Shown: positions 27,459 through 49,489, counted from the stretch's first letter. The stretch: DNA of 64,000 nucleotides from Arenicellales bacterium (GCA_965200545.1 CBDAUJ010000003.1:398504-462503), one strand, 5' to 3'. Made by a program: numbers and translations. The notes: generated from the sequence alone by a model not told the origin.

Positions 27459-27541
27459 TGTCAGGTTCCATAGAATGATGCTCAGACCTAAACTTGCGCC
27501 CTGACTGAGTCATCCAGGCCAGGGAAAGCTGCAGCTTAAAG

Positions 27542-28387: not shown

Positions 28388-28416
28388 GCCTTCGATTGGA
28401 GTATCAATGGCCTCAC

Positions 28417-29043: not shown

Positions 29044-29045
29044 GC

Positions 29046-30758: not shown

Positions 30759-30760
30759 AA

Positions 30761-31456: not shown

Positions 31457-31505
31457 TGCAGATTCCTCGGTTTATCTAGATCCATTCGATGTGCGATCAC
31501 TCGCT

Positions 31506-32638: not shown

Positions 32639-32870
32639 TGCGCTTCAGAGACTTTGGAAGCGGCTTGCCCTGCACTGCCGGCCGCGGCGGTCGCAAGCCG
32701 AATCGATTCAGCGAAACTGTTTGCTCGACTCATCTGATGATCTGCGATCACTGGCCAGCTAGCTCCTGCTAGTCATAGCCGGCATTGAATGGACTCTCAA
32801 GGCATACCGCATCAAGCAAAACATTTTCCCTGCGGCATCGATTCTCTCCGCCGGCACTCTGGATTGGCGC

Positions 32871-33965
32871 TCAGCCGCCCAACGCTTCTTTGACCAGCTG
32901 GCAATCAGTCCCTCTATCGAATTCCGTCCGAGCGCTGATGTAGCCGAATTTTATCCACCAGTCGTTCGTCATTTCCCAATGATCTCTGAGCTGGCCATTG
33001 GTTTGCTCAAACGGAGGCGCGCCTTCCAGCACCCCGCAAAACCGGGCAGTGTCCTCGAGACTGTAGATGTACAACTCGCCTTTCGCGGGATCGTTTTTCG
33101 ATACATCCGTTGTATGCGATCCATCGCCCAGAATCGCCGCAACATCTTCCACTGAGAACCCGACCGCCTCTGCAATCACCTTGTTGGACTCTTCCGCATT
33201 GGCACGCCAATGCTCAACGCCTGCGTAGATGGCTTGCAAGGCTCTGACAGCCAAATCGCGGCGATTCTCAAGAAAGTCATTCGACATATACATCGCATCA
33301 GACAGCAGCGCGGACTGAAGCCAGAAACTATTGAGGGAATGAGCGGCCAGCGTAGATCCCTCCAAGCCGTCCAGAACCTGTGTATTGAACGGAGACCACA
33401 GTGAAGCCGCGGCGACCTGGCCGCTGATCATCGCAGCCGCTGCATCCGCTGCTATGAGATTCACCATCTGCACGTCACCCACATCAATTCCATTTTGCTC
33501 CAGCAAGATACCCACCATAATGTGGGACAAGCCGCCTTCCAGCACCGCGATCTGCTTGCCTTTGAGCTCACTGATATCCTTAATGTCCGGGTGCAGAATA
33601 ATCATATCCGCTCCATGTGACAGATTAGACAGGTTGATCAGCTTGAAACCCATATCCTCAGCCGTAGCAATCGGACCAAACTCAATGGTGCTGAAGACAA
33701 TGTCAAGCTGATTGGTCGACAGCAGGCTGAACAGCTGAATCGGATCTTCAATGACGGTATTCTCGAATTTCAAATCCGTCAGCTCAAAGGCTTCCGCCAC
33801 ATACTGAAAGCCGTAGCCGGGCCAGCTGAAATGCCCGATCCGGACCGTATCCTGAGCAATGGCGCTGCCGGCGCCGAACCAAGACAGCGCGGCCAGCGAC
33901 AGTGCCGCCAGCGACATTTTCCCCCACCGGACGCATCGTTTCAGTTCTTGAATCTGCTTGTTCAT
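32871..33965 (-). CDS. NitT/TauT-family (NMT1/THI5-like) ABC transporter substrate-binding protein
   Basis: Signal peptide (AALSLAALSWFGAGSAIA). Periplasmic SBP following a cognate ATPase and permease. Confidence 0.8.
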   Translation of the reverse strand: MNKQIQELKRCVRWGKMSLAALSLAALSWFGAGSAIAQDTVRIGHFSWPGYGFQYVAEAFELTDLKFENTVIEDPIQLFSLLSTNQLDIVFSTIEFGPIATAEDMGFKLINLSNLSHGADMIILHPDIKDISELKGKQIAVLEGGLSHIMVGILLEQNGIDVGDVQMVNLIAADAAAAMISGQVAAASLWSPFNTQVLDGLEGSTLAAHSLNSFWLQSALLSDAMYMSNDFLENRRDLAVRALQAIYAGVEHWRANAEESNKVIAEAVGFSVEDVAAILGDGSHTTDVSKNDPAKGELYIYSLEDTARFCGVLEGAPPFEQTNGQLRDHWEMTNDWWIKFGYISARTEFDRGTDCQLVKEALGG

Positions 33966-34013
33966 AATCTAAGCCTCCTTAAAAATTTTAGGTCTTTTGA
34001 CAATCCGTGACAT

Positions 34014-34862
34014 CTAGCTGATCTTGCCCTTGATCTCCTCGCGCATCATCCGATACAGCAGTTTTTCCATTTCCAGATAACCTGGATCCGCCAGCAGTTC
34101 TTCCTTTTTCAAATAGCGCTTGCCGCCTTTGAAATCCATCGCCAAATCGGCCTTGATCTTGCCGGGCTGACGAGTAAAAAACAGGATGCGGTCAGCCAAG
34201 TATATTGCTTCTTGGATATCATGTGTGACCATGATAATGGTCTTGCTTTCCCGCTCGATAATCTCGATAATCATCTCTTCCATTTCCCAAGTAACCTGCG
34301 CATCCAGCGCGCCAAAAGGCTCATCAAGCAAGAGCAGCTGGGGGTCTTGGGCAAGCGCCCGGGCAATAGCAACGCGCTGTTTCATGCCGCCGGACAGCTG
34401 CACTGGATAGGCGTCAGCAAAATCTTCAAGATGAACCAGTCGCAGGAACTGATCAACCCGCGCAATCCGCTCTGCCTTGGGCAGTTTCTCAATCTCCATG
34501 CCAAACTCGACATTTTTTCGAACCTTCAGCCAAGGAAAGGATGTGTATGCCTGAAATACCATGCCGCGCTCCGGACCGGGTCCTAAAATCGGCTGGCCAT
34601 ACACTTGAATGCTTCCGCGCGTGGGAAATTCAAGGCCGGCAATCAGCCGCAGCAGTGTTGTCTTTCCGCATCCAGAGGGTCCAATGAATGCAGTAACCTG
34701 ATTTTCTTGAATATTGACAGAAACATCATCCAAGGCTACGATCTTTCCGCCGACATATTCTTTCGAAGTTCGGACGGCGCTGACAGCTGGCTCGCCGGCT
34801 TCTCGACCGGCCTCCAGCGCCTTGTTTCGCTCCGTCCACTTTGAGTCTGAAGTCTTTGGCAT
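34014..34862 (-). CDS. NitT/TauT-family ABC transporter ATP-binding protein
   Basis: GPSGCGKTTLLRLIAGLE, LSGGMKQRVAIARAL, LLLDEPFGALD. Confidence 0.9.
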   Translation of the reverse strand: MPKTSDSKWTERNKALEAGREAGEPAVSAVRTSKEYVGGKIVALDDVSVNIQENQVTAFIGPSGCGKTTLLRLIAGLEFPTRGSIQVYGQPILGPGPERGMVFQAYTSFPWLKVRKNVEFGMEIEKLPKAERIARVDQFLRLVHLEDFADAYPVQLSGGMKQRVAIARALAQDPQLLLLDEPFGALDAQVTWEMEEMIIEIIERESKTIIMVTHDIQEAIYLADRILFFTRQPGKIKADLAMDFKGGKRYLKKEELLADPGYLEMEKLLYRMMREEIKGKIS

Positions 34863-34867
34863 TCGGG

Positions 34868-35752
34868 TTACCGCCTGGCGTGCTCATGGGGAAAGAGAAT
34901 TCGCGAGGCAAAGCGAAACGAAATGTCAGTGAGCACGCCCAGCACACCGATCGTCAAAATGCCGCCCATGATCAAATCGACATGCAAAAAGCGAGAAGCT
35001 CGCATCATCACTGCCCCGATGCCGTCGGTCGCTGCCACAATCTCTGCAATGACCAGGTAGGTCCAGGAAACCGCAATCATATTGCGCATTGAGTCGACAA
35101 TCTGGGGGGCGGCGGCTGGCAGCGCGACACGCAGGACAATTTGCCGCCGATTGGCGCCCATGGTTTGAGCCGACTCAATCAGCTCTTTCGGCACTGACAA
35201 GACATTATCCAGAATCAGTGCGATCAGGAAAAATACACACCCTAAAAACAGCAGTGCCAGTTTCGCGAAATCGGTGGGGCCAAAATAAACCAGCAGGAGC
35301 GGTACGAAAGATGCCGCTGGCAGATAGCGCAGGCCTCCCACCGTCGGATTGATCAGCGCGCGCAGCCTAATAAAACAACCCATCAGGAGGCCGAGCGGCA
35401 CCGCCAGTGCGCAGGCGGCAAAAAAACTTGCATAAATACGGTAGACACTTTTGCCAACATCCCCGATATAGCCTTTATCGCGAATCACCTCAACAATGCT
35501 GCCGACCACCTCACCAACGCCAGGCAGAAATTTCTGCTGCGACTCTGGGGTCAAGTAGTGGGCAATTTGCCAGATGGCAAAAAAGCAAATCACCCCCGCA
35601 ACACCCAGCACAAGCGAAGTGTTGCGGTTCAAAGTTCCCCCTATCTCCAGAAAGCGAGACTTTGGCGGCTGATAAAGCGGTGCCTCGCCAGTTGCGCTTT
35701 CGGAGTCGTTCAGAGGTCTATCTTTTTCGATTTTTTTGGGCATCATCCGCAC
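34868..35752 (-). CDS. NitT/TauT-family ABC transporter permease
   Basis: Polytopic protein with EAA-type loop ESAQTMGANRRQIVLRVALPAAAPQI. Confidence 0.85.
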   Translation of the reverse strand: MRMMPKKIEKDRPLNDSESATGEAPLYQPPKSRFLEIGGTLNRNTSLVLGVAGVICFFAIWQIAHYLTPESQQKFLPGVGEVVGSIVEVIRDKGYIGDVGKSVYRIYASFFAACALAVPLGLLMGCFIRLRALINPTVGGLRYLPAASFVPLLLVYFGPTDFAKLALLFLGCVFFLIALILDNVLSVPKELIESAQTMGANRRQIVLRVALPAAAPQIVDSMRNMIAVSWTYLVIAEIVAATDGIGAVMMRASRFLHVDLIMGGILTIGVLGVLTDISFRFASRILFPHEHARR

Positions 35753-35905
35753 TGGCCTGAAACGTCATTTTTGGTTTGGAAATATACCGCAAATCCAATG
35801 ATCGAAAAGAGGATTTTGCAAGCCGAATCAAAAGAGAATCTCGAATTCGAACCGATTGAATCGATTCACGCCCTGCAATGACACCCCTTGATCGGCAGGT
35901 TGCCA

Positions 35906-37380
35906 CTGTACTTTGATAGGAAAGCCTTGTACAATATGGCTTTTTCAAACCTCTGTCTTTCACCCGACGGGTGAAAGACAGAACTTGCCATAGGAGTACA
36001 AGGCCGATGAGGATTTTATCATACAAGCTGGGCGTCACGCGCAATGCGACCACCTCGCGCGCCGGGCTGCTGGCGCTCGCCGAGCTGCTGCGCAAGGTCG
36101 GGCTGGCGGAACTGGCGCGCACACACCTGCTGGCCGAGATCAGCCGCCGCCTGCTGGCGCTGGCGCTGCGCGGGCGCACCGAGGTCACCTTGGACATTGA
36201 CGCGACGGCGATCGAGGCTGACAAGAAGGAGGCCAAGTGGACGTACAAGAAGCACAAGGGATACATGCCGATGGTCGGGCATGTCGCCGAGACCGGGCAG
36301 GTGGCGGCGATTGACTTCCGCGACGGCAATGCGCCGCCGAGCAAGGACAATCTGGGGTTCATCCGCCAGTGCGAGGCGGCGCTGCCGGCCGGGGTGTCGG
36401 TGCGCCGGGTGCGCATCGACGCGGCGGGGTACAGCGCCGACGTGGTCAATTATCTGATGCAGAGCGGACAGGGCTTTGCGATCCGCGCGAAGATGGACGC
36501 CAGCGTCAAGGAGTCAATGAGCGCGATCCGGGACGGGCAGTGGGAGGCGCTGGTGCATGCGGACGGGACGCGGTCGAAGACGCAGGAGGCGGCGCGCACG
36601 CTGCATGCGATGGCTGACACTGGGGCGTTCACGCTGGCGGAGCGGCGAAAGCGCATTGCTGCGGGCGAGAACGCGCACATTGACGCGTTTGTGGATGCGG
36701 GCGGCAATGCGGCGTCGCGCGGGGCGTATCTGTACCGGGCGATTGCGACGAATCTTGATGGCAAGACGGATCATGAGATTGTGCAGTGGCACAGCCTGTG
36801 CGGGGAAACTTCGGAAAATAAAATAAAGCAGCTGCGCAGCGACTTTGCCGGTGCCAGGCTGCCGTGCGGGAAGTTCGGGGCCAATGCGGTGTGGCTGATG
36901 GTCAATGCGCTGGCGTACAATGTGCTGTGCCTGCTGCGGATGATGCTGCCGGCGAGGTGGCTGACCGCGCGGGCGCCGGCGCTGCGGTTTCATCTGTATG
37001 GCGCCGGCGGGCATGTGGTGCGCCACGGCCGGCAGCTGACGGTCAAGGTGCAGGCGCATCGGCACCGGGTGATCGGCGCGGCGCTGCGCTCGATAAGGGA
37101 GTTTGCGCTGCCCGCCTGACGGCGGCCGCCCGGCGGGCGGCAAAGGGCTTGGGATCGACCGATTGCCGCCGGGCAAGGCGGGCGTGCGCCTGCCGGGGGC
37201 GAGAGGCGGCGCAGTCGCGCCGCGCCGGTCGGTTTTGTGGAAAATGCGGCGCTGAAAGCGCGGCCGGACCGGAATCCGGTGCGGCCGGGCAGGTCGAATC
37301 GACGAATTCGGCGGCCCGTCTTCGCCCTCAGCATTGAACGTGCCGATTTGGGACACCAAACATCAAAGTTTCGAGTACAG
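35906..37380 (+). mobile_element. IS1380-family insertion sequence (boundaries tentative)
   Basis: Abrupt switch to very GC-rich DNA at about 36.0-37.3 kb. Contains an IS1380-type transposase. Possible imperfect ends: CTGTACTTTGAT (35906-35917) versus the reverse complement of 37362-37380 (CTGTACTCGAAACTTTGAT). No clear target duplication. Confidence 0.5.
36007..37119 (+). CDS. IS1380-family DDE transposase (N-terminal region shorter than usual)
   Basis: VTLDIDATAIEADKKEAKWTYKKHKGYMP, RIDAAGYS and GETSENKIKQLRSDF match the D-D-E blocks of IS1380/ISEcp1-type transposases. AGGAG precedes ATG 36007. Confidence 0.8.
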   Translation: MRILSYKLGVTRNATTSRAGLLALAELLRKVGLAELARTHLLAEISRRLLALALRGRTEVTLDIDATAIEADKKEAKWTYKKHKGYMPMVGHVAETGQVAAIDFRDGNAPPSKDNLGFIRQCEAALPAGVSVRRVRIDAAGYSADVVNYLMQSGQGFAIRAKMDASVKESMSAIRDGQWEALVHADGTRSKTQEAARTLHAMADTGAFTLAERRKRIAAGENAHIDAFVDAGGNAASRGAYLYRAIATNLDGKTDHEIVQWHSLCGETSENKIKQLRSDFAGARLPCGKFGANAVWLMVNALAYNVLCLLRMMLPARWLTARAPALRFHLYGAGGHVVRHGRQLTVKVQAHRHRVIGAALRSIREFALPA

Positions 37381-37592
37381 GAAAAACCTATAATCGCCAG
37401 ACAGCTCCGATTCTCGGGACTCTGCGAGAAGCGGCAGTCAAATGGCGGATCTTAAGATGCTTGAGCGGGCGATACTTTCTTGATGCGCCATTTGCAGTCT
37501 GAAACGCACTGTCGCCGCCTGGCAGCAGTGGATTGAAGAGGGAGCAATGCGCATCCTATCATGAAACAGTCACATCCTTATGAGGTAAACGC

Positions 37593-38660
37593 ATGAATGC
37601 CAGCCTACCCTCTGCTTGGGAGTTCGTTCCGCATCATCACCAAGGTCCGGCAGCGCAAAGCGGCAAGAATGATCATATCTACTCTCCGCGCAATCACAAC
37701 GGCGTGTTCAAGTCGCGCGGCCTGTCCACATTCATGGGGGCGCCCTATTGTCCGCCGCACCGGAGCGCAATTCGTGAGATGGGCGCCAAAGTTTGTTTTC
37801 TCGGGGTTCCGTGGGACCAGGGGCAAATGGTTCGAGCCGGAACCTCGCAGGGGCCCTCTGGAATTCGTGAGGCGTCCACTCAATACTCGCCCTACATGTT
37901 TGAGTTCGATGTCGACCTGATGACTTTCTTCCGGCCGGTTGACTGCGGTGACGTGCCCATTGTCCCCGGCAACAACGAGCGCAGTCACGAATACATTTAT
38001 CAGTACATTACTGAGTGTCTTGAAGGCGACGCAAAAGTCATTCTTTGCGGCGGCGATCACTCGGTGCCTATTCCCGGCTCGCGGGCGCTGTCGGATTTTC
38101 ATAAAAACGGCAAGATCGGCTATCTGCATGTCGACTGCCATCTGGACTCTGCGCCTGATTGGGAAGGCTCGCCCTACACGAATTGCTCGGGTCCGGCAAG
38201 AGCTTTTGATCTGCCAAACTGCGCTGGCGAAAATATGGCGCACATGTGCTCGCGCAATGGACTCAACCCGAAGGACTGGGTCGACTTCTGGAGCGATAAC
38301 GGGGTCCGCATGATCCCCATGCAGGAGGTTGTCGACCGCGGCATCGAGGCCTGCACCAAAGAAATCTTTGAAATTGCCTGGAATGGAACCGATGGCGTCT
38401 ACTGGTCTTGGGATACCGATTCGCTGGATGCGAGCTGCATGCCAGGCACAACAGCGCCCGAGACGTTTGGTTTGAAACCGCGCGAGGCGATCCGGCATGC
38501 ACGAATCGCGGGAACGTACGGCGCTGATGTATTTGAGGTATCTGAGCTGACTCCGCATTTTGATGTCAGTGACATGAGTATCAAGCTCGCCTGCTGCCTG
38601 ATCTATCAGTACCTTGGCAGTCGTGCAAAAACACTTCGCGACCGAGGACAAGCCGCTTGA
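37593..38660 (+). CDS. Arginase-fold ureohydrolase, subunit type A (copy 1), full metal-ligand set
   Basis: GGDHSVPIPG, GYLHVDCHLD (DxHxD), SWDTDSLD (DxD). GAGG Shine-Dalgarno. Confidence 0.85.
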   Translation: MNASLPSAWEFVPHHHQGPAAQSGKNDHIYSPRNHNGVFKSRGLSTFMGAPYCPPHRSAIREMGAKVCFLGVPWDQGQMVRAGTSQGPSGIREASTQYSPYMFEFDVDLMTFFRPVDCGDVPIVPGNNERSHEYIYQYITECLEGDAKVILCGGDHSVPIPGSRALSDFHKNGKIGYLHVDCHLDSAPDWEGSPYTNCSGPARAFDLPNCAGENMAHMCSRNGLNPKDWVDFWSDNGVRMIPMQEVVDRGIEACTKEIFEIAWNGTDGVYWSWDTDSLDASCMPGTTAPETFGLKPREAIRHARIAGTYGADVFEVSELTPHFDVSDMSIKLACCLIYQYLGSRAKTLRDRGQAA

Positions 38661-38711
38661 TCAGAAGTCGCTTGACAGCGCAAAAACAATCAGATTTTGT
38701 GAGAGAGAAAA

Positions 38712-39746
38712 ATGAATCCTGTGAAGAACTTTGAGCATTTGTTCTCGCCGCTGGGCGATCCCGAGAATTTCAAGTCACTGGGTGTCGTGACTTTCATGCG
38801 CTCTGCGCAAGTTGATATGGAAAGCGATGCGCTGCGCCAAAGCGGCGCGCGGTTTGCTTTTGTCGGCATTCCCTATGATGAGGGCAACGTTGGCAAACCG
38901 GGGTCTGAAGATGGCCCGCAGGCATTTCGGGTTGCGAGTCATGAATACTTCCCCTACTGGTTTGAGTATCGCGTTGACCTGGCAGGCACATGCGTGGACT
39001 GCGGCAATGTGCGCGTGCCCAAGGTGATGCCGGAATTGGCGCATGATCGCATCTATCGGGCAATTCGTGAAGTGCTTGCTGCGGGCGTTACACCGGTGAT
39101 CTGCGGCGGCGACCGCTCCATTTCAATCTCGGCCTCGAAAGCTTTGTCTGACCACATCGGTCACCAGAAAAAGATTGGCTACATGCACTTCGGCGCCCAT
39201 CTGCAGATGGCAGACACCTGGGCCGGCGAGAAAATGGCCAGCACTTGCACATTGGCTCGTGTGAGCGAGCTCAAGAACATTCATGCGGACAATATCGCCC
39301 ATATCGGCGCCCGCAATTCAATGAATCCGCGCGACCACATTGAGCTGGCAGAGGTACGCGGGATTCGTTTTCACGCCATGGATGAAGTCGTGGAGCGAGG
39401 CGTATCGACGGTCGTCAACGAGGCGGCAGATCGTGTATGGAACGACACTGACGCGCAATACTTGAGTTTCGACATGAACATCATGGACGCCTCAGCCGCA
39501 CCAGGTGTAACTGCGCCCGAGCCCGGCGGTTTCGAATCCCGTGAGATGATGCAGACCGCCACATTGCTCGGCGAGCGCGGTTCAGTGAGCTTGATCGAAG
39601 TGTCTGAGCTGGCGCCGGTTTTTGACGTGAGCGGCACGACCTCAAAATTAGCTGCCTGCGTTGTCCTGCGTCTCATGGCGGCCATGGCGCGGCAGCGCGG
39701 TGAGTCTGTAGATCCCAATCTTCGGCGGGAAAGCCTGAGAAAATAG
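38712..39746 (+). CDS. Arginase-fold ureohydrolase-like protein, subunit type B (copy 1), degenerate metal ligands
   Basis: Family fold retained (DEGNVGKPGSEDGP, AAPGVTAPEPGG), but GGDRS (His to Arg), FGAHLQ (Asp to Gly, Asp to Gln) and SFDMN (second Asp to Asn). Confidence 0.8.
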   Translation: MNPVKNFEHLFSPLGDPENFKSLGVVTFMRSAQVDMESDALRQSGARFAFVGIPYDEGNVGKPGSEDGPQAFRVASHEYFPYWFEYRVDLAGTCVDCGNVRVPKVMPELAHDRIYRAIREVLAAGVTPVICGGDRSISISASKALSDHIGHQKKIGYMHFGAHLQMADTWAGEKMASTCTLARVSELKNIHADNIAHIGARNSMNPRDHIELAEVRGIRFHAMDEVVERGVSTVVNEAADRVWNDTDAQYLSFDMNIMDASAAPGVTAPEPGGFESREMMQTATLLGERGSVSLIEVSELAPVFDVSGTTSKLAACVVLRLMAAMARQRGESVDPNLRRESLRK

Positions 39747-40693
39747 ATTGCTCGCTCTTCTGTGCGGGAGCGGAGCGCCCGCAAGGCATTTTCATTTGAA
39801 CAGCGCACTGGCATCCCTGTGACCTGTATCGAACGCAAATCTCCCAGTGAGCTTAACCTAGGTCACCAGCTGCGGAGCATCCGCAATCGTTCCACACCTG
39901 CCGAATGCGCTCATTGCATTGACGAATCGCTGCGAATCTCACTTTCGCCTTGTCGCCAGCTGTTGCCCAAACCACGGCACTTTTGCAGCGAATGGGCAGC
40001 CGGCCGCACTGGCCGCCATATCGACAACCGCTGAAAATGTGAACTCCAAGCTGCCGACTGCAAGCTGCTCAAAGCTGGCCAAATATCCAAGCTTCAAACA
40101 CACGACAGGACACCGAGAATGGAAGCGGCGTAATGATTGCGAGTCGGCGGACTCAAACTAAGAGCAAGCGCACCAGGCACACTCAGTACATGGCCCGCAA
40201 TTGTTCGTAATATTTCGGACATCATTCAAACCTTGATTGCCTGTCGATCTGTCTGGCATGACTCGCCAGACTGCCACTCATGGCATCAACCTGCAACTGA
40301 ATCGCCGGCAACCTGCGCAACGTTCGACCGCACTGGCAGCGGCAGATTAATACAGCGACTTGCACTCCACTCCACACATTGATCTGCTCCAAGCCGCCTG
40401 CGCGACCTGTATACCTTCTATGCCGAGACGCACAAGAACGATACCGCCTTGCATTGATCCGTTGAGCGGATACGACGAGCGCTGCGTCTTAAAACGCGGC
40501 GACTGACTCTCAGGCCGAGTCAATCATCTTTTTTGCTGCGGCCCGCGGAGGCTCCGAGAAATTCACCGGCAGGTTGCGATGATTTTTTACAGCCTCATTG
40601 CGGAATCAGATCATCACTTAAATCATATCCAGACCCGCATAAATGTTAGAATTGACGCAGAATCAAAACAATCATCACGAAAGGAGCAAGACG

Positions 40694-41542
40694 ATGTGTA
40701 ACGTATGCGGCTGTGGATCCGAACAAACGCATAACCACGAGCATAGCGAACATAAGAAGCATGACGATAATGCCAAACAGCGTCTTCATTTCGGAGGTAA
40801 CGAGGCGAGAGTGTCTGTTGCCGGATTCAACAGTTCCGAGCTGGTCACCATTGAGAGAAATATTCTTGATAAAAATCAATCTTATGCAAACCAAAATCGA
40901 TCTTTTTTCTTGGACAACAAACTGTTCGCAGTCAATCTGCTGTCCAGTCCGGGCGCCGGCAAGACCAGTCTGCTGATCAAAACCATTGAGAATCTGCAGC
41001 AGGCGATCCCAATTTATGTGATTGAAGGCGATCAGGAGACCGACAACGACGCTGAACGCATTCGCCGCACCGGTGTTGAGGCTGCGCAAATCAATACTGG
41101 AAAAGGCTGTCATCTTGATGCCCATATGGTCGGTCACGCCCTTGAGGAGTTCACGTTTGACCCAGCCGGAGGCTTGGTGCTCATCGAAAACGTCGGAAAT
41201 CTGGTGTGTCCCGCTGCATTCGACTTGGGCGAGTCCTGCAAAGTCGTGATCTTGTCGGTCACAGAAGGCGAGGATAAGCCGCTGAAATATCCCGATATGT
41301 TCGCTGCCTCGGACCTGATGATCATCAGCAAATCCGATTTGCTGCCATATTTGCGGTTTGATGTCGAACAGGCAATCGAATACGCCAAGCGCGTCAACCC
41401 GGCTTTGGAAGTCATACAACTGTCTGTCGAGTCCGGCGACGGACTTCAGCAATGGGAAAAGTGGCTGCTGAGCGATGCCAATGCTCAAGCGCCACGCTCA
41501 CCGCAAAGGCAGTCTGTAGGAAGCTGCTGTGCCCATGCATGA
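40694..41542 (+). CDS. hypB: HypB-like nickel-binding GTPase metallochaperone
   Basis: N-terminal MCNVCGCG plus His-rich stretch, P-loop SPGAGKTSLL, ENVGNLVCPA, SKSDL. AAGGAG precedes ATG 40694. Confidence 0.9.
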   Translation: MCNVCGCGSEQTHNHEHSEHKKHDDNAKQRLHFGGNEARVSVAGFNSSELVTIERNILDKNQSYANQNRSFFLDNKLFAVNLLSSPGAGKTSLLIKTIENLQQAIPIYVIEGDQETDNDAERIRRTGVEAAQINTGKGCHLDAHMVGHALEEFTFDPAGGLVLIENVGNLVCPAAFDLGESCKVVILSVTEGEDKPLKYPDMFAASDLMIISKSDLLPYLRFDVEQAIEYAKRVNPALEVIQLSVESGDGLQQWEKWLLSDANAQAPRSPQRQSVGSCCAHA

Positions 41543-41930
41543 GCTGGCGCTGTCCCGAAGTCTAGTCGAAATGGTGGACGACTACGCACTGCGTCACCGT
41601 GCAAGCCGAGTCAAGCAGATCAATCTTCGCCTGGGCGAGTTGTCCGCGATGACGAGAGCCCTGTATTTCTGCTTTGAATCCGTCTCCAAAGGCACCGTAT
41701 GCGAAGGCGCGACTCTTTCTATAGAGACTGTGCCCTTGACTGTCTACTGCAGTCACTGCGACGAGACCAAGAAGCCTTCGGGTCGCTACAGTTTTCGCTG
41801 CAGCGACTGCGGCATGCCCACACCCAAAGTCATCACTGGGCGCGAACTGCAGCTGGTCTCGATCGAACTGGCATCATCAGATCAGACATCAGTTGCGCTC
41901 GACACCCGCGAAACCGCCGCAACCGCATAA
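41535..41930 (+). CDS. hypA: HypA-like nickel metallochaperone
   Basis: Starts MHELAL (the MHE Ni-binding N-terminus). Zn motifs CSHC...CSDC. The ATG overlaps the hypB stop (ATGCATGA). Confidence 0.88.
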   Translation: MHELALSRSLVEMVDDYALRHRASRVKQINLRLGELSAMTRALYFCFESVSKGTVCEGATLSIETVPLTVYCSHCDETKKPSGRYSFRCSDCGMPTPKVITGRELQLVSIELASSDQTSVALDTRETAATA

Positions 41931-41958
41931 ATCGAATGGACAATCAAGTAAAAAGAAT

Positions 41959-43038
41959 ATGACAATCAGCCCAAACAATGCGTGGAGTTTCGTCGCGCAT
42001 CAGCATCAGGGGCCGCATCAGGAAACCGATACCGATGCCCATACGCGGTCTCCAAGCAAACACAACAGCAGCTTCAAGGCGGAAGGCATTCTCACTTTCA
42101 TGGGTGCGCCTTACTGTCCACCTGAACGCGACAAAGTGCGAGCCGCGGGCGCTAAAATCTGTTTTCTTGGGGCTCCTTGGGACCAAGGTACCATCGTACG
42201 CACGGGCACCTCCAGCGGACCGCACGGCATTCGCGAGGCATCATCGCAGTATTTTTCTTATATGTTTGAATATGATGTCGATTTGATGACCTTTTTTCGA
42301 GTGGTCGACTGCGGCGACATCCCGATTGTTCCGGGGAACAACACACTCTCACAGCAATACATGTGCGATTATGTCACCGAATGTCTCGAAGGCGGCGCGA
42401 AAGTGATTCTCGTCGGCGGCGACCATTCGGTCCCCATCCCCGGTGCGCGAGCCCTGTCGCAGTATCTCAGCCGCCACAACCCTGAGGGAAAAATGGGCTA
42501 TCTGCATGTGGACTGCCATTTGGATGCTGCGGTCGATTGGGCAGGCATTGAGATTACCAATGCCTCGGGGCCCACTGAAACCTTCAAGCTGCCAAACGTC
42601 AACGCCGAAAACATGGCCCACATGGGCTCACGAAACGGCTTGAACCCGAAAGACTGGATGGATTTTTGGGTCGACAACGATATGCCCATTTACTCAATGG
42701 CACAGGTTGTCGAGCGCGGCGTTGAAGTGTGCGGACGTGAAATTCTTGAGCGTGCCTGGAATGGCACCGATGCAGTTTATCTTTCTTGGGACACCGACTC
42801 GATCGACTGTAGCTGCATGCCTGGAACCAGCTGTCCTGAAAGCTATGGCCTCAATGCGCGCGAGGCGCTCGCCTTTGCGCGACTGGCCGGGCAGTTCGGT
42901 GTCGATGTGCTTGAGCTGGCAGAGCTCTCGCCCGTTTTCGATGTCAGTCAGATGAGCGCAAAACTCGCTTGCAACCTGATTTATCACTATCTCGGCAGCC
43001 GCGCCAAGACTTTGCGTGACAGCAGCCAAAGTCCTTGA
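41959..43038 (+). CDS. Arginase-fold ureohydrolase, subunit type A (copy 2), full metal-ligand set
   Basis: Co-linear with A1. GGDHSVPIPG, GYLHVDCHLD, SWDTDSID. Trimmed to MTISPNNAWSF by analogy with A1 (MNASLPSAWEF). Confidence 0.85.
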   Translation: MTISPNNAWSFVAHQHQGPHQETDTDAHTRSPSKHNSSFKAEGILTFMGAPYCPPERDKVRAAGAKICFLGAPWDQGTIVRTGTSSGPHGIREASSQYFSYMFEYDVDLMTFFRVVDCGDIPIVPGNNTLSQQYMCDYVTECLEGGAKVILVGGDHSVPIPGARALSQYLSRHNPEGKMGYLHVDCHLDAAVDWAGIEITNASGPTETFKLPNVNAENMAHMGSRNGLNPKDWMDFWVDNDMPIYSMAQVVERGVEVCGREILERAWNGTDAVYLSWDTDSIDCSCMPGTSCPESYGLNAREALAFARLAGQFGVDVLELAELSPVFDVSQMSAKLACNLIYHYLGSRAKTLRDSSQSP

Positions 43039-43093
43039 TGCCACAGGCCACAAACAGAAATCTGCTGAAGCACAAACCCATCATGGTATCCCT

Positions 43094-44137
43094 ATGAATC
43101 CTGCAAAAGCCTACTTGCATCTGTTTTCTCCGCTTGGCGGCGAAAACGCCGATAACTACCGTACGCCAGGCCAAATTTCATTTTTGCGCTCGAAGTTCAT
43201 GTCTTTGGATGACGCAGCCTTGGCGGAAACCGATGCGCCTTATGTGTTCATCGGCGTGCCGTTCGATGAAGGCAATGTGGGCAAACCCGGCAGCGAGGAC
43301 GGACCGCGCGAGTTTCGGGTTGCATCGCTGGATTATTTTCCGTTCTGGTTCGAGTTCAATGTCGATCTGCACGGCAGTGCCATCGACTGCGGCGATGTCT
43401 CGATGCCGAGAGTCAGTCCTGACGTTGCCCGCGAGCGCATCTACCGAGCGGTCAGCAAAGCGCTGGCCGCCGGCAAGACACCGATCATTTGCGGCGGCGA
43501 CCGATCGGTCTCGATACCCGCAGCCAAAGCTCTCTCAGATCATCTCGGTGCAGACCAGAAAATGGGCTATCTGCATCTGGGCGCCCATCTGGACATGGCA
43601 GACAGCTGGGCCGGCGAGCGCGAAGTCAGCACCTGTACCCTGGCGCGCATCACCGAGCTGAACAATCTCAGTATGGAGCACGTCGCGCATATCGGCGCCC
43701 GCAATTCATTCAATCCCAAAGACCATGTCGATCTCGCAAAATCCCGCAACATGCGTTTCTACCCCATGCATGAAGCCCTTGAGCGTGGCATCGATACCGT
43801 CATTGACGAAGCGGTCAGCCGCGTTTGGAACGGTACCGATGGCCAGTATCTGAGTTTCAACTTCAATGTTCTGGACTCTTCAGCCGCACCCGGCGTCACC
43901 GCCACTGAGCCTGGCGGATTGGAATCGCGCGAAATTATGCGTGTTGCCTCAAGTATCGCCAAACAGCAAGGTGTCAGCGTGATCGACGTGACCGAACTGT
44001 GCCCGATGTTTGATGTCAGCGGCTCCACTTCACGCACCGCCGTTTGTGTCGTGCTTCGAATCATGGCAGAGATTGCTCACCTGCGCGGGCAGACGCTGGA
44101 TGAATCGATTCGCCGCCCCGGCTGGCAATACAACTAA
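43094..44137 (+). CDS. Arginase-fold ureohydrolase-like protein, subunit type B (copy 2), degenerate metal ligands
   Basis: Co-linear with B1. GGDRS, LGAHLD (first Asp to Gly), SFNFN (both Asp to Asn). Trimmed to MNPAKAYLHLF by analogy with B1 (MNPVKNFEHLF). Confidence 0.8.
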   Translation: MNPAKAYLHLFSPLGGENADNYRTPGQISFLRSKFMSLDDAALAETDAPYVFIGVPFDEGNVGKPGSEDGPREFRVASLDYFPFWFEFNVDLHGSAIDCGDVSMPRVSPDVARERIYRAVSKALAAGKTPIICGGDRSVSIPAAKALSDHLGADQKMGYLHLGAHLDMADSWAGEREVSTCTLARITELNNLSMEHVAHIGARNSFNPKDHVDLAKSRNMRFYPMHEALERGIDTVIDEAVSRVWNGTDGQYLSFNFNVLDSSAAPGVTATEPGGLESREIMRVASSIAKQQGVSVIDVTELCPMFDVSGSTSRTAVCVVLRIMAEIAHLRGQTLDESIRRPGWQYN

Positions 44138-44175
44138 ATCTCATCATGCAAATTGACCTGTAGGAGGTAAGCAGA

Positions 44176-45255
44176 ATGAAATCAAGAAAGTCACATTCAT
44201 TGCGGACGCTGATGCAATGCGCTGCGACAGCGGTTGCTGTCGCACTTGGGGCCATGGTGACACAGGTATCGGCAGCTGATGCGCTCAATGTCCTGGTCTG
44301 GTGCGATCATGCCGATGAGAAACTGATCAAGCCGTTTGAAGACAAGCATAACGTAAAAGTCAATGTCAAAACCTATGAGGGCACTGGCACTGCACTGTCC
44401 ATCATTGAGCAGTCCGCTCCCGGCGACTGGGACGTGCTCGTGGTCGACGCGCCGGATGCACCGGTGGTCGCTGGCCTCGGACTACTTGCGCCGCTGAATG
44501 ATGCCGACCTGCCGCTTGATAATCTGTTCGATCCGCTGACCGCAGCCGGTTTCAATTATGTCGACGGGAATCGATACACAGTGCCGGAGAAATTCGGCTA
44601 CTACGGGGTGGTCTATAACAAAGACAAGGTTGATCCGGAAGACATGAAGTCCGCGCAAGTCATGTGGAATGACAAGTATGCGGGACGCATCGCAGTCTAC
44701 GATTACTACTTTCCGGCCATGCAGCTGATTGCCATCTCCATGGGCATCGCACCGGATGATATTACCATGGAGCACTTGCCTCAGATTCGTGAGAAACTGC
44801 TCGAAATGCGCTCGAATGTCAAAATGATCGGTGATATTGTGAGTGTGCAGAACGCGCTGGTCAATGGCGATGTGGACATTATCGTGAATGCTGCTGAATT
44901 TGCGGTCTCCAACCTCATGCCCTCGCTTCCGCATCTGGATTGGACTATTTTTGAGGAAGGCGGCCTGATCTGGATTCAAGGCCTGAGTATCATGAAAGAC
45001 TCAAAGCAAAAGGATTTAGCTCTGGAGTTCGTCAAGCATGTAATCAGCCCCGAGGGACAAAGCGCACTGGCAACTTCGGAATGCTACTGGGCGATGCCTG
45101 CCAATGCGACAACCGAACTGTCGGCAGACGAGAGAGCGATCCTGCGCTGGGATGAGCAATCCGGGTTCTTGGCGCGTTCAGTGCCATCGGCGATCAGTCA
45201 GCCGGATATCGATGCAGAAATGCTGGATATGTGGACTGAATTTTTGCAAAAATGA
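44176..45255 (+). CDS. PotD/PotF-like (family 1) ABC transporter substrate-binding protein
   Basis: AGGAGG Shine-Dalgarno, signal peptide ending VSAADA, polyamine-type SBP length and composition. Confidence 0.8.
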   Translation: MKSRKSHSLRTLMQCAATAVAVALGAMVTQVSAADALNVLVWCDHADEKLIKPFEDKHNVKVNVKTYEGTGTALSIIEQSAPGDWDVLVVDAPDAPVVAGLGLLAPLNDADLPLDNLFDPLTAAGFNYVDGNRYTVPEKFGYYGVVYNKDKVDPEDMKSAQVMWNDKYAGRIAVYDYYFPAMQLIAISMGIAPDDITMEHLPQIREKLLEMRSNVKMIGDIVSVQNALVNGDVDIIVNAAEFAVSNLMPSLPHLDWTIFEEGGLIWIQGLSIMKDSKQKDLALEFVKHVISPEGQSALATSECYWAMPANATTELSADERAILRWDEQSGFLARSVPSAISQPDIDAEMLDMWTEFLQK

Positions 45256-45386: not shown

Positions 45387-46247
45387 ATGGCGACGGCACA
45401 ACAAAAATCCCTTTTTGATTTAACGAAGTGGGCAATTCACCCGGCCTTTTGGTTCACGGTGATTTTTTTCGCTATACCGCTTGCAATCATGCTTGCCGTC
45501 AGTTTCTGGCAGCGCGTATACGGAAAACTAGCAGCGACTTGGGACTTGGCCAATTACGCAAAGTTTTTTGGCCGAGATTACCTCCTTGAATCACTGTTCA
45601 ATTCGATTGAAGTGACGGTTTTGTCGACTCTCATCAGTATTGTTCTTGCCTACCCTCTGGCCTACGCACTGGCCTATAAAGTTCCGCCACGCCTGCAGCG
45701 CCTGATACTGCTGCTGGCAGTGATGCCTTTTTGGACTGCATACGTGGTGCGCTCCTACAGCTGGCTGCTGGTGATTGCTGAAAATGGTGTCATCAACGTG
45801 ATTCTGACTGGTTTGGGGCTCGTTGAGCAACCGCTTGAAATGGCGTATAGCCGCGGTGCAACGGTGCTCGGGTTTGTTCACTTTTTCACCATGCTACTGA
45901 CCTTGACCATCTATGCGAATCTGGTTCAAATCAAGCCTTCCTACCGGAAAGCCGCCACCGACCTCGGCGCGAATTCGCTGCAGGCGTTTTTGCGCATCAC
46001 CTTGCCGCTCAGCATGCCCGGTGTAGCGGTGGGCGGCTTTATTTCGTTTGTAATTGCGATCGGCGATTACATTACTCCGCAGATTTTGGGCGGCGGCACG
46101 GAAGTTCTGGTGCCGCAGGCGATCATATTGCAAGTATCGCGCGCTGCCAACTTTCCGATGGCTTCAGTGATGAGCGTAACGCTGATGATTGTCGTGATTG
46201 TCGTCTACCTCATTTCAGCCAAGCACATGAAAATGGAGCGGGTGTAA
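45387..46247 (+). CDS. PotB-like ABC transporter permease
   Basis: Six-TM binding-protein-dependent permease with EAA-like loop (YRKAATDLGANSLQAFLRITLP). Confidence 0.85.
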   Translation: MATAQQKSLFDLTKWAIHPAFWFTVIFFAIPLAIMLAVSFWQRVYGKLAATWDLANYAKFFGRDYLLESLFNSIEVTVLSTLISIVLAYPLAYALAYKVPPRLQRLILLLAVMPFWTAYVVRSYSWLLVIAENGVINVILTGLGLVEQPLEMAYSRGATVLGFVHFFTMLLTLTIYANLVQIKPSYRKAATDLGANSLQAFLRITLPLSMPGVAVGGFISFVIAIGDYITPQILGGGTEVLVPQAIILQVSRAANFPMASVMSVTLMIVVIVVYLISAKHMKMERV

Positions 46248-47038
46248 TGCGACAGTGGCTGCGCAACATGCCGTTTTTCGGCTACATCGCGCTGGCTCTG
46301 GGGTTTATCTATCTCCCGGTTGTGGTACTGGTGATTTTTTCGTTTCAAGACGGACTGCTGCCCGTGCCGCCGTTCCATGGGCCCAGTCTGCAATGGTATG
46401 ACAAGATGCTCGAAAATGATCGTCTGGTCGACGCTTTGCTCAACTCCGTAGCTGTGGCTGTGCTATCGTCGGCAGCCACCACAGTGCTGGGATTTTTGGC
46501 CGCTTACGGAATGGTCAAGCGGCCGCCGCGCTGGATCGGCAGCATTCGGTTCGTATTGATGGCGCCGCTGACGGTGTCCTACCTGATTATTGGCATTGGC
46601 CTGCTGATCACATTGAACATCTTGGGAATACCAAAATCGCTGTTCGCTGTTGGCATCGGACACGCTGTGATCAATCTGCCGCTTTGCTTCGCAATCATTT
46701 ATTCTCAGTTCGGCGATCATATGAAGAACATTGATGCGGCGGCACGGGATCTCGGCGCAAGCGATTTTCAAACCATGATTCGAGTCATCGCGCCGATCAT
46801 GAAACCGTCTTTATTCGCTGCGTTTTGCCTTTCCGCAACACTGTCGTGGGATGAGTTTATCATTGCGTTTCTGCTGAGCCGTTTTGAAGTCACGCTGCCC
46901 GTAATAATTTTCGAGATGCTGCGGGCCGGATTGACGCCGGAGGTGAATGCGGCCGGCACTGTTGTATTCGCAATATCGTTCACGTTTGTGGCAATCGCAG
47001 CAAGCGTTATGTTTCTTAGCAACCGGAAAACACCATGA
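46247..47038 (+). CDS. PotC-like ABC transporter permease
   Basis: Start overlaps the previous stop. EAA-like loop (IDAAARDLGASDFQTMIRVIAP). Confidence 0.85.
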   Translation: MRQWLRNMPFFGYIALALGFIYLPVVVLVIFSFQDGLLPVPPFHGPSLQWYDKMLENDRLVDALLNSVAVAVLSSAATTVLGFLAAYGMVKRPPRWIGSIRFVLMAPLTVSYLIIGIGLLITLNILGIPKSLFAVGIGHAVINLPLCFAIIYSQFGDHMKNIDAAARDLGASDFQTMIRVIAPIMKPSLFAAFCLSATLSWDEFIIAFLLSRFEVTLPVIIFEMLRAGLTPEVNAAGTVVFAISFTFVAIAASVMFLSNRKTP

Positions 47039-48117
47039 GCCATGAACCGCTGGTGGTTTTAGATGGCGTGACCAAAACATTTGGTGAAGTCATCGCTGTT
47101 GATCGCGTGAGTCTGAATATTGAGCCGGGTGAATTTCTGGTTCTGCTCGGGCCATCAGGGAGCGGCAAGACAACCTTGCTTTCGATGCTCGGCGGATTCA
47201 TCACACCAACGGCCGGCAAGGTGCTGATCCGCGGCGAGGACGTTACGCACCTGCCCCCCGCGACGCGACCGACCGTCACAGTGTTTCAAGACTATGCGCT
47301 TTTCCCTCATATGAGCGTAAGTGACAACATCGGATTTGGCCTGGTGATGAGAAAAGTGCCGAAACGCGAGCGCCTGCGGCGCATATCGGCGGCACTCGAA
47401 AAAGTCGGCCTGACCGGCTTTGGCGCGCGCGGCGTTCACCAGCTCTCCGGCGGCCAGCGCCAGCGGGTTGCATTGGCGCGCGCAATCGCCGTGGAGCCGA
47501 CAGTCCTGCTGCTGGATGAGCCCCTCGGAGCACTGGATTTGAAAATTCGCCAGAAAATGCAAGCAGAGCTGGTGCATCTGCAAAAGAACCTCCATTCAAC
47601 ATTTGTCCATGTAACGCATGACCAGGATGAGGCCATGAGTATTGCAGATCATATTGCGCTGGTCAACCGTGGAAAAATTGAAGACTACGGTTCCCCAGAG
47701 CGAATCTACCTGCGTCCGGCCACTTTGTTCACGGCAAGATTCATGGGTGAAACGAATATCATTGAGGTGCAGCCGACGGCGGCCAGTGACGGCGAGAAGC
47801 TGATCGTTGACAGTCCGCTCGGCGAATTGACGCTGCCGCTTGCGAACTTGGACAGCAGCATACCCCACAATATTGCACTGCGGCCGGAGCAAATCAAATT
47901 AAGCGACGGAAACATCGCAGCCGGTCATCTGGCGCTGGGAGATGCCAAAGTGACTGAGGTCGTATTTCAAGGCACCCATCGGCTCTGTCGCGCGATAGGC
48001 GGCACGGCAATGGATACCGAACTGCTGATCAAGGTTGCGCCGGATCATCAGGTTGTGGCGGGCGATATGCTTGCTTTACAAGCGCGCAGAACCGATGTGA
48101 CGCTATTGTCGAAGTAA
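47035..48117 (+). CDS. PotA-like ABC transporter ATP-binding protein
   Basis: GPSGSGKTTLLSMLGG, LSGGQRQRVALARA, LLLDEPLGALD, plus a C-terminal TOBE-like region. Confidence 0.9.
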   Translation: MSHEPLVVLDGVTKTFGEVIAVDRVSLNIEPGEFLVLLGPSGSGKTTLLSMLGGFITPTAGKVLIRGEDVTHLPPATRPTVTVFQDYALFPHMSVSDNIGFGLVMRKVPKRERLRRISAALEKVGLTGFGARGVHQLSGGQRQRVALARAIAVEPTVLLLDEPLGALDLKIRQKMQAELVHLQKNLHSTFVHVTHDQDEAMSIADHIALVNRGKIEDYGSPERIYLRPATLFTARFMGETNIIEVQPTAASDGEKLIVDSPLGELTLPLANLDSSIPHNIALRPEQIKLSDGNIAAGHLALGDAKVTEVVFQGTHRLCRAIGGTAMDTELLIKVAPDHQVVAGDMLALQARRTDVTLLSK

Positions 48118-48296: not shown

Positions 48297-49190
48297 ATGC
48301 ATGACAGGCCAGTGCTCATGCCCAGCATTGTTGTCTCTGCCGGTGCGGCAATATGGGGTCTTTTCTGGATACCCGTCCGTCAGCTGGACAGCAACGGAAT
48401 TTCGGCCGCATGGACATCACTGATTGCGCTGGGATTGATTGGCATTGTGTTCGTGGTGCTGTTTGCGACTCGATATCTCAAAACGCGTCGAATTCCTTGG
48501 AATGTACTGCTGACCGGGTTAATTGGCGGCGGGTACTTCGTGCTGTATACCTGCGCGCTGATACTCACAGAAGTCGTCAAGGCGATCTTGCTGATTTACC
48601 TGGCTCCAATCTGGAGCATTATGCTCGGCAGATTTATGCTCAACGAGAAAATAACGACGTATCGCGTGATCGCAGTCTGCTGCGGCATTTCTGGCCTGGT
48701 CGTCGTGCTGGGCATTTCAGACGGCAATTTGCGATGGACCGAAGTCGGCGACTTGATGGCGCTTGTCGCCGGGTTTCTCTGGTCCTTCGCGGCAGTTCGA
48801 ATCAGGCAGCGTCCAGAAATTCCAGTGTGGGAGCAGGTCGGCGCCTTTCACATCGGCGGCGCGCTGATCGCAGCACTGTTCATTATCATGCCATTTCAAG
48901 GGCTGCAAAAAACACCCGCTTTGAACGCATTGGTCGATTCCGTCTTGTGGCTAGCAGTTTTTATGTTCTTTTTTGTCATAGCAGTTTATCTCGTTTGGTG
49001 GGGTACGCGAATTCTAAGTCCCACACGAGTCGGTTTGCTCTCGATGACAGAAGTGGCATTCGGAGTCGGTTCGGCTGCGATTTTAGCTGGAGAGCCGTTC
49101 GGCTGGGTGCAAGTTACTGGCGTAATTCTGATTCTGTCGGCGGCATTTATTGATGTGCTTGATCGATTTCCAAATTCAAGCTCCGCCTGA
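48297..49190 (+). CDS. EamA/DMT-superfamily transporter
   Basis: About 10 predicted TM helices in two similar halves, 297 aa. Confidence 0.75.
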   Translation: MHDRPVLMPSIVVSAGAAIWGLFWIPVRQLDSNGISAAWTSLIALGLIGIVFVVLFATRYLKTRRIPWNVLLTGLIGGGYFVLYTCALILTEVVKAILLIYLAPIWSIMLGRFMLNEKITTYRVIAVCCGISGLVVVLGISDGNLRWTEVGDLMALVAGFLWSFAAVRIRQRPEIPVWEQVGAFHIGGALIAALFIIMPFQGLQKTPALNALVDSVLWLAVFMFFFVIAVYLVWWGTRILSPTRVGLLSMTEVAFGVGSAAILAGEPFGWVQVTGVILILSAAFIDVLDRFPNSSSA

Positions 49191-49489
49191 TCGATGCGCA
49201 TCCCCAATTCGAAATTTGATCTCGCATGGCGGCCAATTCAGCCATTTTCATCCGTTCGTACTCAACTTGATGCCGCAGTCACTGCATACACTGGCAGCAA
49301 ACTCTTTTCCGCCCAGTTTAACGAAACAACAATAACGCACAAACATGAGGATACAAATCACACTGCATCCATTTTGGTTGAAGACGAGACAACCAGAAAA
49401 CTTTATTTTCGTCATGCATGTGATCAGTGGTGCAGTCCGGAATCACATCGCAAAATGCCGCGCGCAACTGCCAGCCTGATCGAATCCTT

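Follow-up and report, generated by a model that had tools for sequence, protein, structure and literature searches.

Two heteromeric ureohydrolase gene pairs of the MefH/DmgH family, from different lineages, beside one hypBA pair and a urease cluster in a marine Arenicellales bacterium

A 64,000-nucleotide stretch of DNA from an Arenicellales bacterium (GCA_965200545.1 CBDAUJ010000003.1:398504-462503; called the window here, with positions counted from its first letter) carries two adjacent pairs of arginase-fold genes, A1-B1 and A2-B2, with hypB and hypA between them. We consider it probable that this region encodes two separate nickel-dependent heteromeric ureohydrolases of the MefH/DmgH family together with one HypB/HypA pair for nickel loading, A1B1 acting on N,N-dimethylguanidine or a very close compound and A2B2 on a related guanidine. 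A preliminary description of the sequence had proposed the order A1, B1, hypB, hypA, A2, B2; all six open reading frames (ORFs) were found on the plus strand at the positions it gave, and every motif block that it quoted was present and co-linear in both members of each type. The region is organised as follows.

37593-38660, plus strand: A1, predicted catalytic alpha subunit of the urease-linked (DmgH-like) subfamily (PF00491, MfmA match)
38712-39746, plus strand: B1, predicted non-catalytic beta subunit, partner of A1 (PF00491, MfmB match)
39747-40693, no strand: non-coding spacer between two units, with protein homology only to itself and to the related locus L003
40643-41542 (probable start 40694), plus strand: hypB, nickel-binding GTPase chaperone (Pfam cobW, TIGR00073)
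41529-41930 (probable start 41535), plus strand: hypA, nickel metallochaperone (PF01155, TIGR00100)
41959-43038, plus strand: A2, predicted catalytic alpha subunit of clade II (PF00491, MfmA match)
43094-44137, plus strand: B2, predicted non-catalytic beta subunit, partner of A2 (PF00491, MfmB match)

All four arginase-fold proteins matched PF00491 (Arginase family) with E values of 1e-52 to 1e-60. A1 and A2 are 65% identical (tblastn E 1e-154), B1 and B2 57% (E 1e-146), and A-type and B-type proteins share 34-40% identity, values that are far beyond chance. A search against all PDB sequences returned metformin hydrolase subunit A (MfmA; 8SNF, 8X3G, 8RYI) as best match for A1 (E 4e-167, 65% identity) and A2 (E 9e-160, 63%), and subunit B (MfmB) for B1 (E 2e-145, 58%) and B2 (E 2e-154, 62%). 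The homomeric nickel guanidine hydrolase GdmH ranked second at E ~1e-43, followed by classical enzymes at 1e-16 to 1e-26, among them agmatinases at 1e-16 to 1e-21. GdmH of Synechocystis with its GhaA/GhaB proteins (PDB 7ESR, 7OI1) resembles the Arenicellales system as a nickel-dependent arginase-fold enzyme with HypA/HypB-like loaders, but it is the homo-oligomeric product of one gene and far more distant (E ~1e-43 versus 1e-167). Assignment to a classical manganese agmatinase, arginase or formimidoylglutamase was rejected, as all four proteins scored below the curated equivalog cut-offs (agmatinase TIGR01230, 125-132 bits with a cut-off of 174; HutG, 97-147 with 229; arginase, 48-84 with 228). 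The NCBIfam release of June 2026 held no model specific to the MefH/DmgH family.

The metal sites separate the two subunit types. Numbered according to MfmA as in Tassoulas et al. (PMC10927577), A1 and A2 retain the six metal ligands H159, D184, H186, D188, D277 and D279, as well as E321, N200 and W232. These ligands and Asn200, which takes the place of the usual catalytic His, were kept in 83 of 83 alpha proteins, except for D279N in three. Beta proteins of the family have three to five of the six ligands replaced: the corresponding positions read R, G, H, Q, D, N in B1 and R, G, H, D, N, N in B2 (four replaced in each), and R, G, Q, D, N, N in MfmB. Alpha and beta branches of the family were also separated by neighbour joining with a bootstrap value of 100. 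On the basis of the MfmA/MfmB matches and of intact alpha and degenerate beta metal sites, both pairs are assigned to the MefH/DmgH family (MfmAB, MetCaCb) of heteromeric ureohydrolases, with nickel dependence predicted by homology; the earlier reading of each adjacent A-B pair as a two-subunit enzyme of the MfmAB type agrees with this assignment. Either alpha subunit would carry a di-nickel catalytic site, and the beta subunit would be a degenerate, non-catalytic partner needed, by homology, for folding and alpha2-beta4 assembly.

MefH/DmgH was described as an alpha2-beta4 heterohexamer with nickel in the alpha subunits only (Sinn et al. 2024, PMC11399263); neither subunit was active alone, and activity was nickel-dependent, with co-expression of HypAB. 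The homologues from Aminobacter and Hyphomicrobium cleave N,N-dimethylguanidine to dimethylamine and urea and have urease genes nearby (PMC11399263). Moreover, pairs whose alpha subunits are 62-71% identical to MetCa were purified as heterohexamers with almost no metformin activity (Li et al., PMC11271267). By analogy with these homologous pairs, A1-B1 and A2-B2 are expected to form heterohexamers and to depend on nickel, and the architecture and metal initially proposed for them appear to be right. As in other clusters of the family, the chaperone genes are part of the cluster, with hypB-hypA located directly 5' of A2 and 0.9 kb 3' of B1.

The same comparisons make a metformin hydrolase function of either pair extremely improbable. 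Fold, operon logic and an identity to MfmA of 63-65% would be compatible with this function, but true metformin hydrolases are >97% identical among themselves (PMC10927577), metformin activity was reduced 20,000-fold or absent in homologues sharing 62-94% identity with MetCa (PMC11271267), and a plasmid collection contained no DNA nearly identical to the Arenicellales genes. The signature N289-S290-A291 is replaced by T-T-A in A1 and T-S-C in A2, so that neither protein combines N-S-A with C185 and >97% identity, although residue 185 is Cys in both. The Arenicellales pairs thus share with MfmAB/MefH/MetCaCb (PDB 8SNF, 8RYI, 8X3G) the family, the fold, the alpha metal ligands, N200, W232, the degenerate beta metal site and a HypAB-dependent type of operon; they differ in lacking the N-S-A specificity loop, in being located on the chromosome of a marine Arenicellales bacterium instead of wastewater plasmids, and in having neither HupE/UreJ nor CodB adjoining the locus.

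To place both pairs within the family, one genome per GTDB species was scanned, which revealed 157 alpha homologues; the best 80 of the 157 loci were taken with 10-kb flanks, and 14 metagenome loci were added, giving 94 related loci in all. Alpha and beta trees were calculated by neighbour joining with 100 bootstraps. A2 belongs to a group of 43 alphas (bootstrap 100), designated clade II, in which marine Arenicellales, Candidatus Poriferihabitaceae and alphaproteobacterial metagenome-assembled genomes (MAGs) are well represented and which is encoded in the operon hypB-hypA-alpha-beta-PotD-like binding protein-two permeases-ATPase. The PotD-like transporter lies 3' of alpha-beta in nearly all clade II loci and is followed by a TetR regulator in 17 of them. 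A1 falls into a tight sub-clade of nine (bootstrap 100) from Arenicellales, Poriferihabitaceae and related MAGs. It belongs to the urease-linked group (type I), the usual order of which is NitT/TauT-type ATP-binding cassette (ABC) transporter-hypB-hypA-alpha-beta-ureE-F-AB-C, often with an AsnC-type regulator; this order was confirmed in 14 further metagenome loci. The clade of MfmA and Aminobacter comprises nine members (bootstrap 96). The beta tree is congruent with the alpha tree and repeats its groupings: B1 clusters with the same nine loci as A1 (bootstrap 100) and B2 with the same loci as A2; therefore, each pair was inherited as a unit. Since deeper nodes reached bootstrap values of only 39-59, the three groups can be ordered only tentatively.

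A1B1 and A2B2 hence represent two old subfamilies with different canonical operons. Recent tandem duplication was rejected, because A1 and A2 are only 65% identical and each lies in a different old clade, and the initial treatment of A1/A2 and B1/B2 as simple paralogues has to be replaced by that of two lineages joined by rearrangement. Clade II and urease-linked loci were both present, at separate sites, in at least 10 assemblies, with a spacing of 0.6-2 Mb in genomes other than that of locus L065, an Arenicellales MAG. The published tree of Sinn et al. (PMC11399263) already held a clade II sequence, Oceanospirillaceae_1, which equals locus L017, and sequences of the A1 clade such as Acidiferrobacterales_1 (95% identical to A1).

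Some related loci showed additional features. In a Pseudomonadales MAG (L017, 10001-13700), a single alpha gene precedes two beta genes whose products share 68% and 70% identity with B2. Most A1-type loci of Arenicellales and Poriferihabitaceae (L001, 12230-18023; also L057, L067, L069, L072, L076 and L078) contain an extra cluster between beta and the NitT/TauT transporter, which encodes a soluble di-iron monooxygenase (two Phenol_Hydrox subunits, MmoB, Rieske and TmoB), a RidA-like protein and a PuuE-like polysaccharide deacetylase and which may serve further metabolism of the substrate or product. The window does not contain this cluster; a homologous deacetylase gene is located at 21451-22359. 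A clade II operon in L002 is flanked (2472-7118 and 17158-21080) by GMAS-like and N-methylglutamate-synthase-like genes and by genes for a DUF1989-GcvT fusion protein and an MTTB-family methyltransferase, that is, by methylated-amine metabolism beside the hydrolase.

A likely substrate can be named for A1B1. The sequence of the tested Hyphomicrobium DmgH (HVZ03923), available in trimmed form from the source data of Sinn et al. (PMC11399263), grouped with the urease-linked loci L064 and L077 (91-93%) and was, over the trimmed blocks, 79% identical to A1 and 69% to A2. The pocket signature of A1 is Q81/C201/T289-T290-A291. Q81 and the T-T-A loop are common to HVZ03923 and A1; position 201 was trimmed from the published sequence, and C201 is found in the closest relatives of the Hyphomicrobium enzyme and in 30 of 31 urease-linked alphas besides HVZ03923, a count that includes A1. 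The loop 289-291 reads S-T-S in Aminobacter DmgH and N-S-A in metformin hydrolase, and changes in loop 288-290 together with S184C shift DmgH towards metformin (PMC11399263); this loop corresponds to 289-291 in the numbering of Tassoulas, and S184 to residue 185, not to C201. A1 and B1 are 93% and 88% identical to the alpha and beta proteins of L065, where the canonical urease-linked context is seen.

Since A1 groups with HVZ03923, shares its Q81 and T-T-A and belongs to an urease-linked operon type, A1B1 is most likely a dimethylguanidine-type hydrolase. Its substrate would be N,N-dimethylguanidine or another small N-substituted guanidine very close to it, and its products dimethylamine and urea; the NitT/TauT-type ABC transporter would import the substrate, and the adjacent urease would act as a sink that splits the released urea and yields nitrogen. 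The DmgH enzymes (Aminobacter niigataensis DSM7050, Hyphomicrobium sp. SMAG_U6089; PMC11399263) resemble the Arenicellales pairs in their tandem alpha/beta genes with catalytic alpha and degenerate beta, adjoining hypA/hypB and a urease close by, and A1 also shares the urease-linked operon type (NitT/TauT ABC, hypBA, alpha-beta, ureEF-AB-C). Differences are the moderate identity of A1 to the Hyphomicrobium group (only ~75-79%) and to Aminobacter DmgH (67% over the trimmed blocks), the lack of an own hypBA beside A1B1, the inverted transporter-urease block, and the altered pocket of A2B2. The substrates had previously been called unknown, which is too strong for A1B1; a place within a characterised group with the same gene context, named beforehand as a refuting outcome, was largely found for A1B1 and not for A2B2.

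The pocket of A2B2 deviates from this pattern. Throughout clade II, the signature T81, A201 and loop T-S-C was found in 39-43 of the 43 members, A2 included, with C at position 291 in 42 of 43. Comparison of clade II with all other alphas (sites conserved to >=90% on each side, ~347 aligned positions) revealed only seven sites with fixed differences. Three of the seven (81, 201 and 290) fall on sites reported to lie in the active site or to contact the substrate, against an expectation of 0.28 (hypergeometric P 0.0017); position 191 lies three residues after the ligand D188. In addition, clade II including A2 carries a specific insertion of four residues. In MfmA, changes at Q81 and C201 had deleterious effects (PMC10927577). 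The fixed pocket sites, the insertion, the reported effects of Q81 and C201 changes and the maintenance of both locus types in the same genomes together point to a shifted substrate specificity of A2B2.

A2B2 would then be the canonical product of the hypB-hypA-alpha-beta-PotD-like operon and would carry out the same chemistry on a related guanidine, probably a different one because the pocket appears re-tuned across the whole of clade II. We tentatively propose that clade II is a distinct nickel-dependent heteromeric ureohydrolase whose substrate in nature is a guanidine different from N,N-dimethylguanidine, a reading that is slightly less likely than not. Naming ligands from the binding proteins was rejected, as the nearest solved structures are too distant (polyamine binders, E 1e-13 to 1e-24, for the PotD/PotF-like protein; E 1e-8 for the SsuA/TauA-like protein).

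Alternatively, both pairs could be redundant dimethylguanidine hydrolases, that is, isoenzymes which differ only in regulation, affinity or coupled transporter, the clade II pocket changes leaving the substrate as it is. Clade II is flanked in the tree by tested dimethylguanidine hydrolases (the Hyphomicrobium enzyme in the urease-linked group, the Aminobacter enzyme in the MfmA clade), the PotD-like transporter is common to clade II and Aminobacter-type loci with binding proteins 52-61% identical, and the methylamine-pathway genes near clade II loci (GMAS-like, mgs-like, GcvT-type demethylases, MTTB) are compatible with dimethylamine release. Yet isoenzymes would hardly be expected to have their few fixed differences concentrated in the substrate pocket and to keep a conserved insertion, and single substitutions at two of these very positions, Q81 and C201, impair MfmA (PMC10927577), while loop 288-290 plus S184C, in the numbering of Sinn et al., switches DmgH towards metformin (PMC11399263). 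Both types are also maintained in at least 10 genomes. We regard redundancy as unlikely, and a shifted specificity of A2B2 as the better reading of this evidence.

The genomic surroundings indicate how both lineages came together. The neighbouring features are listed below.

27542-28387, minus strand: ureD (Pfam UreD), collinear with the urease end of the L065 type I operon
28417-29043, minus strand: ureG (Pfam cobW/UreG), collinear with the urease end of the L065 type I operon
29046-30770, minus strand: ureC (from translation)
30761-31456, minus strand: fused ureAB (from translation)
31506-32192, minus strand: ureF (from translation)
32189-32638, minus strand: ureE (from translation)
32871-33965 (binding protein), 34014-34862 (ATPase) and 34868-35752 (permease), minus strand: NitT/TauT (NMT1/SsuA-like) ABC transporter (Pfam NMT1)
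35971-37119, plus strand: DDE transposase remnant, N-terminally truncated (Pfam DDE_Tnp_1_4, profile positions 136-416 of 435)
44176-45255 (binding protein), 45387-46247 and 46247-47038 (permeases) and 47035-48117 (ATPase), plus strand: PotD/PotF-like ABC transporter (Pfam SBP_bac_8/1/6)
48297-49190, plus strand: EamA-family exporter or permease (Pfam), of uncertain membership in the system
49427-51904, plus strand: dimethylglycine/sarcosine-dehydrogenase-like FAD and GcvT protein (Pfam), of uncertain membership in the system

The window contains a complete urease cluster (ureE, F, AB, C, G, D) at 27542-32638 on the minus strand; its genes at 29046-32638 are 67-88% identical to the urease genes 3' of alpha-beta in type I loci. 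The NitT/TauT binding protein scored below the cut-off of the NCBIfam model SsuA_fam. In the relatives L065, L046-L082 and L089-L095, NitT/TauT transporter, A1-type alpha-beta and urease form one operon, and in L065 the order alpha-beta-permease-ATPase-binding protein-ureE-F-AB-C-G-D lies on one strand. Compared with L065, the transporter-urease block of the window is inverted relative to A1B1, and the 1.9-kb inversion junction holds the truncated DDE transposase in a patch of 63% G+C (0.634, versus ~0.52-0.55 around it). Long antisense ORFs in the patch at 35971-37119 are artefacts of its composition. The transposase was not found in the related loci, nor were terminal inverted repeats found beside it; an intact insertion sequence (IS) element at the junction was rejected for lack of such repeats and because the transposase is N-terminally truncated. 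The L065 genome carries its clade II operon (L004) 89 kb from the A1-type locus.

Two adjacent pairs were found in none of the 80 genome loci and none of the 14 metagenome loci, except for a degraded copy in L003. Adjacency of both pairs is thus limited to this lineage among the 94 related loci, and the inverted transporter-urease block with the truncated transposase at its junction indicates that the arrangement arose by rearrangement. The earlier view that two such pairs with one chaperone pair and a urease match no recognised characterised locus is right in that a two-pair locus is unusual; the family itself, its HypAB dependence and its link to urease have been published (PMC11399263).

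The nearest genome, L003 (Arenicellales MAG OZ243928.1; ~92% DNA identity, A2 99%), is collinear with the window and has no equivalents of positions 26303-28491 and 29023-39220. At 6846-8111 of L003, a ureG fragment is joined to 175 in-frame 3' codons of B1, beside hypB. L003 has recently deleted urease, NitT/TauT transporter, A1 and half of B1. As it retains the 3' half of B1 beside hypB, the adjacency of the pairs is therefore older than the split between the window and L003.

These events raise the question whether A1B1 is a decaying relic, cut off by IS-mediated rearrangement from its transporter-urease operon, regulator and own hypBA, that no longer contributes. The inversion with the truncated transposase, the deletion from ureC to mid-B1 in L003 which left only the ureG fragment and the B1 codons, and the failure to find an AsnC-type regulator in the window would fit such a fate. 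Decay is difficult to reconcile, in contrast, with intact A1 and B1 ORFs that retain every catalytic residue, with a promoter-like site 30 nt upstream of A1 and with intact urease and transporter genes. The ratio of nonsynonymous to synonymous substitution rates (dN/dS) of A1B1 versus L065 was 0.02 at saturated synonymous divergence. For A1, B1, A2 and B2 it was 0.02-0.05 (A1 0.02 versus L065, A2 0.04 versus L003); all four genes are under strong purifying selection. A relic is accordingly improbable, and we retain A1B1 as a presumably functional dimethylguanidine-type hydrolase.

The window contains a single hypA and a single hypB, and besides hypB its only cobW-family gene is ureG. One chaperone pair and a nearby urease had also been noted in the preliminary description. 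HypB reached 285 bits against TIGR00073 (cut-off 121) and HypA 94.7 bits against TIGR00100 (cut-off 88.1). A better start of hypB is ATG 40694, preceded by AGGAG 7 nt upstream and giving a His-rich protein with the N-terminus MCNVCGCG (usual MCxxCGC); that of hypA is ATG 41535, which yields the nickel-binding N-terminus MHE. The two genes would then overlap by 8 nt, hypA beginning before the hypB stop. HypA also carries a CxxC...CxxC zinc site. The A1-type pair of L065 has no hyp genes within 10 kb, and hypBA of that genome is located at the clade II locus 89 kb away. Because the window has a single hypBA and L065 likewise lacks hypBA beside its A1-type pair, it is a reasonable inference that one HypBA pair loads both enzymes. 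A1B1 would have lost the hypBA genes that accompany A1-type pairs in most relatives, and HypBA of the neighbouring operon would presumably load nickel into both.

Promoter-like sites before A1 (37533-37562, the site mentioned above) and before hypB (40586-40614) suggest two transcription units, parted by the 0.9-kb non-coding spacer. Blastx and blastn of 39747-40642 gave no matches outside L003, and a pseudogene or gene remnant in the spacer was rejected for this reason. No Rfam family reached its gathering score anywhere in the window. Riboswitch control was rejected as well, as a lax Rfam threshold on 35600-42000 gave only a chance microRNA match.

Several points weigh against two separate enzymes with the substrates proposed here. 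Within the tree, clade II is flanked by groups which both contain tested dimethylguanidine hydrolases, so A2B2 may simply be a third one; its position as sister of the Aminobacter clade, and any parsimony argument on ancestral specificity, are soft. The MAG JAJFHL01 holds urease-linked and Aminobacter-type loci, both types with dimethylguanidine-active representatives, and co-occurrence alone is thus no proof of different substrates. For A1B1, the Km of DmgH is millimolar (2.6 mM in HEPES; PMC11399263) and dimethylguanidine has no known natural occurrence (PMC11399263, PMC12508155); for the whole family, A1B1 included, the physiological substrate may really be another compound. The usual regulators, TetR after clade II (type II) operons and AsnC-type before type I operons, are missing from the window, and the close relative L003 dispensed with A1B1.

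The family, its HypAB dependence, the urease link and DmgH were already published (PMC11399263). Three points are new: sequence comparison identifies clade II as a coherent and widespread subfamily, mostly marine, that is distinct in operon and pocket; clade II and urease-linked loci frequently occur in the same genome; and in the rearranged locus described here both types stand beside one chaperone pair that is presumably shared. MefH/DmgH enzymes were described only in 2024, and dimethylguanidine has never been encountered in nature. The family comprises at least three operon types, including a large marine branch with a consistently altered pocket, and two of these types are kept in many marine genomes. 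The window is the only place among the related loci where both types, a single chaperone pair and a urease occur together; as a compact construct it would allow the two enzymes to be compared side by side and chaperone sharing to be tested. Should the two enzymes differ in substrate, they would point to marine nitrogen sources not recognised before, possibly among sponge-associated communities, and provide a natural example of a specificity shift in this scaffold, the same question as in the recent evolution of metformin hydrolase. If our reading of clade II is true, it would open a direct route to the natural substrates of the family and to a hidden marine pool of substituted guanidines that serve as a nitrogen source.

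Downstream of the PotD/PotF-like transporter, the EamA gene and the FAD-GcvT gene adjoin the operon also in L003. The FAD-GcvT protein (825 amino acids, 49427-51904) is 70% identical in L003 and scored far under all NCBIfam cut-offs; a GcvT-type demethylase at this place is compatible with methylated-amine metabolism, which is only an inference. The window is chromosomal, as shown by the housekeeping genes ffh, dnaK, dnaJ, hrcA and recN. A plasmid or mobile origin was rejected because of these genes and because megablast of 37400-44200 against the plasmid collection was empty. A segment at 22419-24203 with 45% G+C, containing the ORF 22797-23336 without a Pfam match, is not shared with the close relative L003 and is therefore a variable spot. 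Finally, positions 52000-64000 form a low-G+C island (41-48%) which is probably a defence island: it carries restriction genes of the GmrSD type, one a fragment (54010-54441) and the other full-length (58292-60394; GmrSD_N, GmrSD_C and DUF5655), and an N6/N4 DNA methylase of 785 amino acids at 61619-63976.

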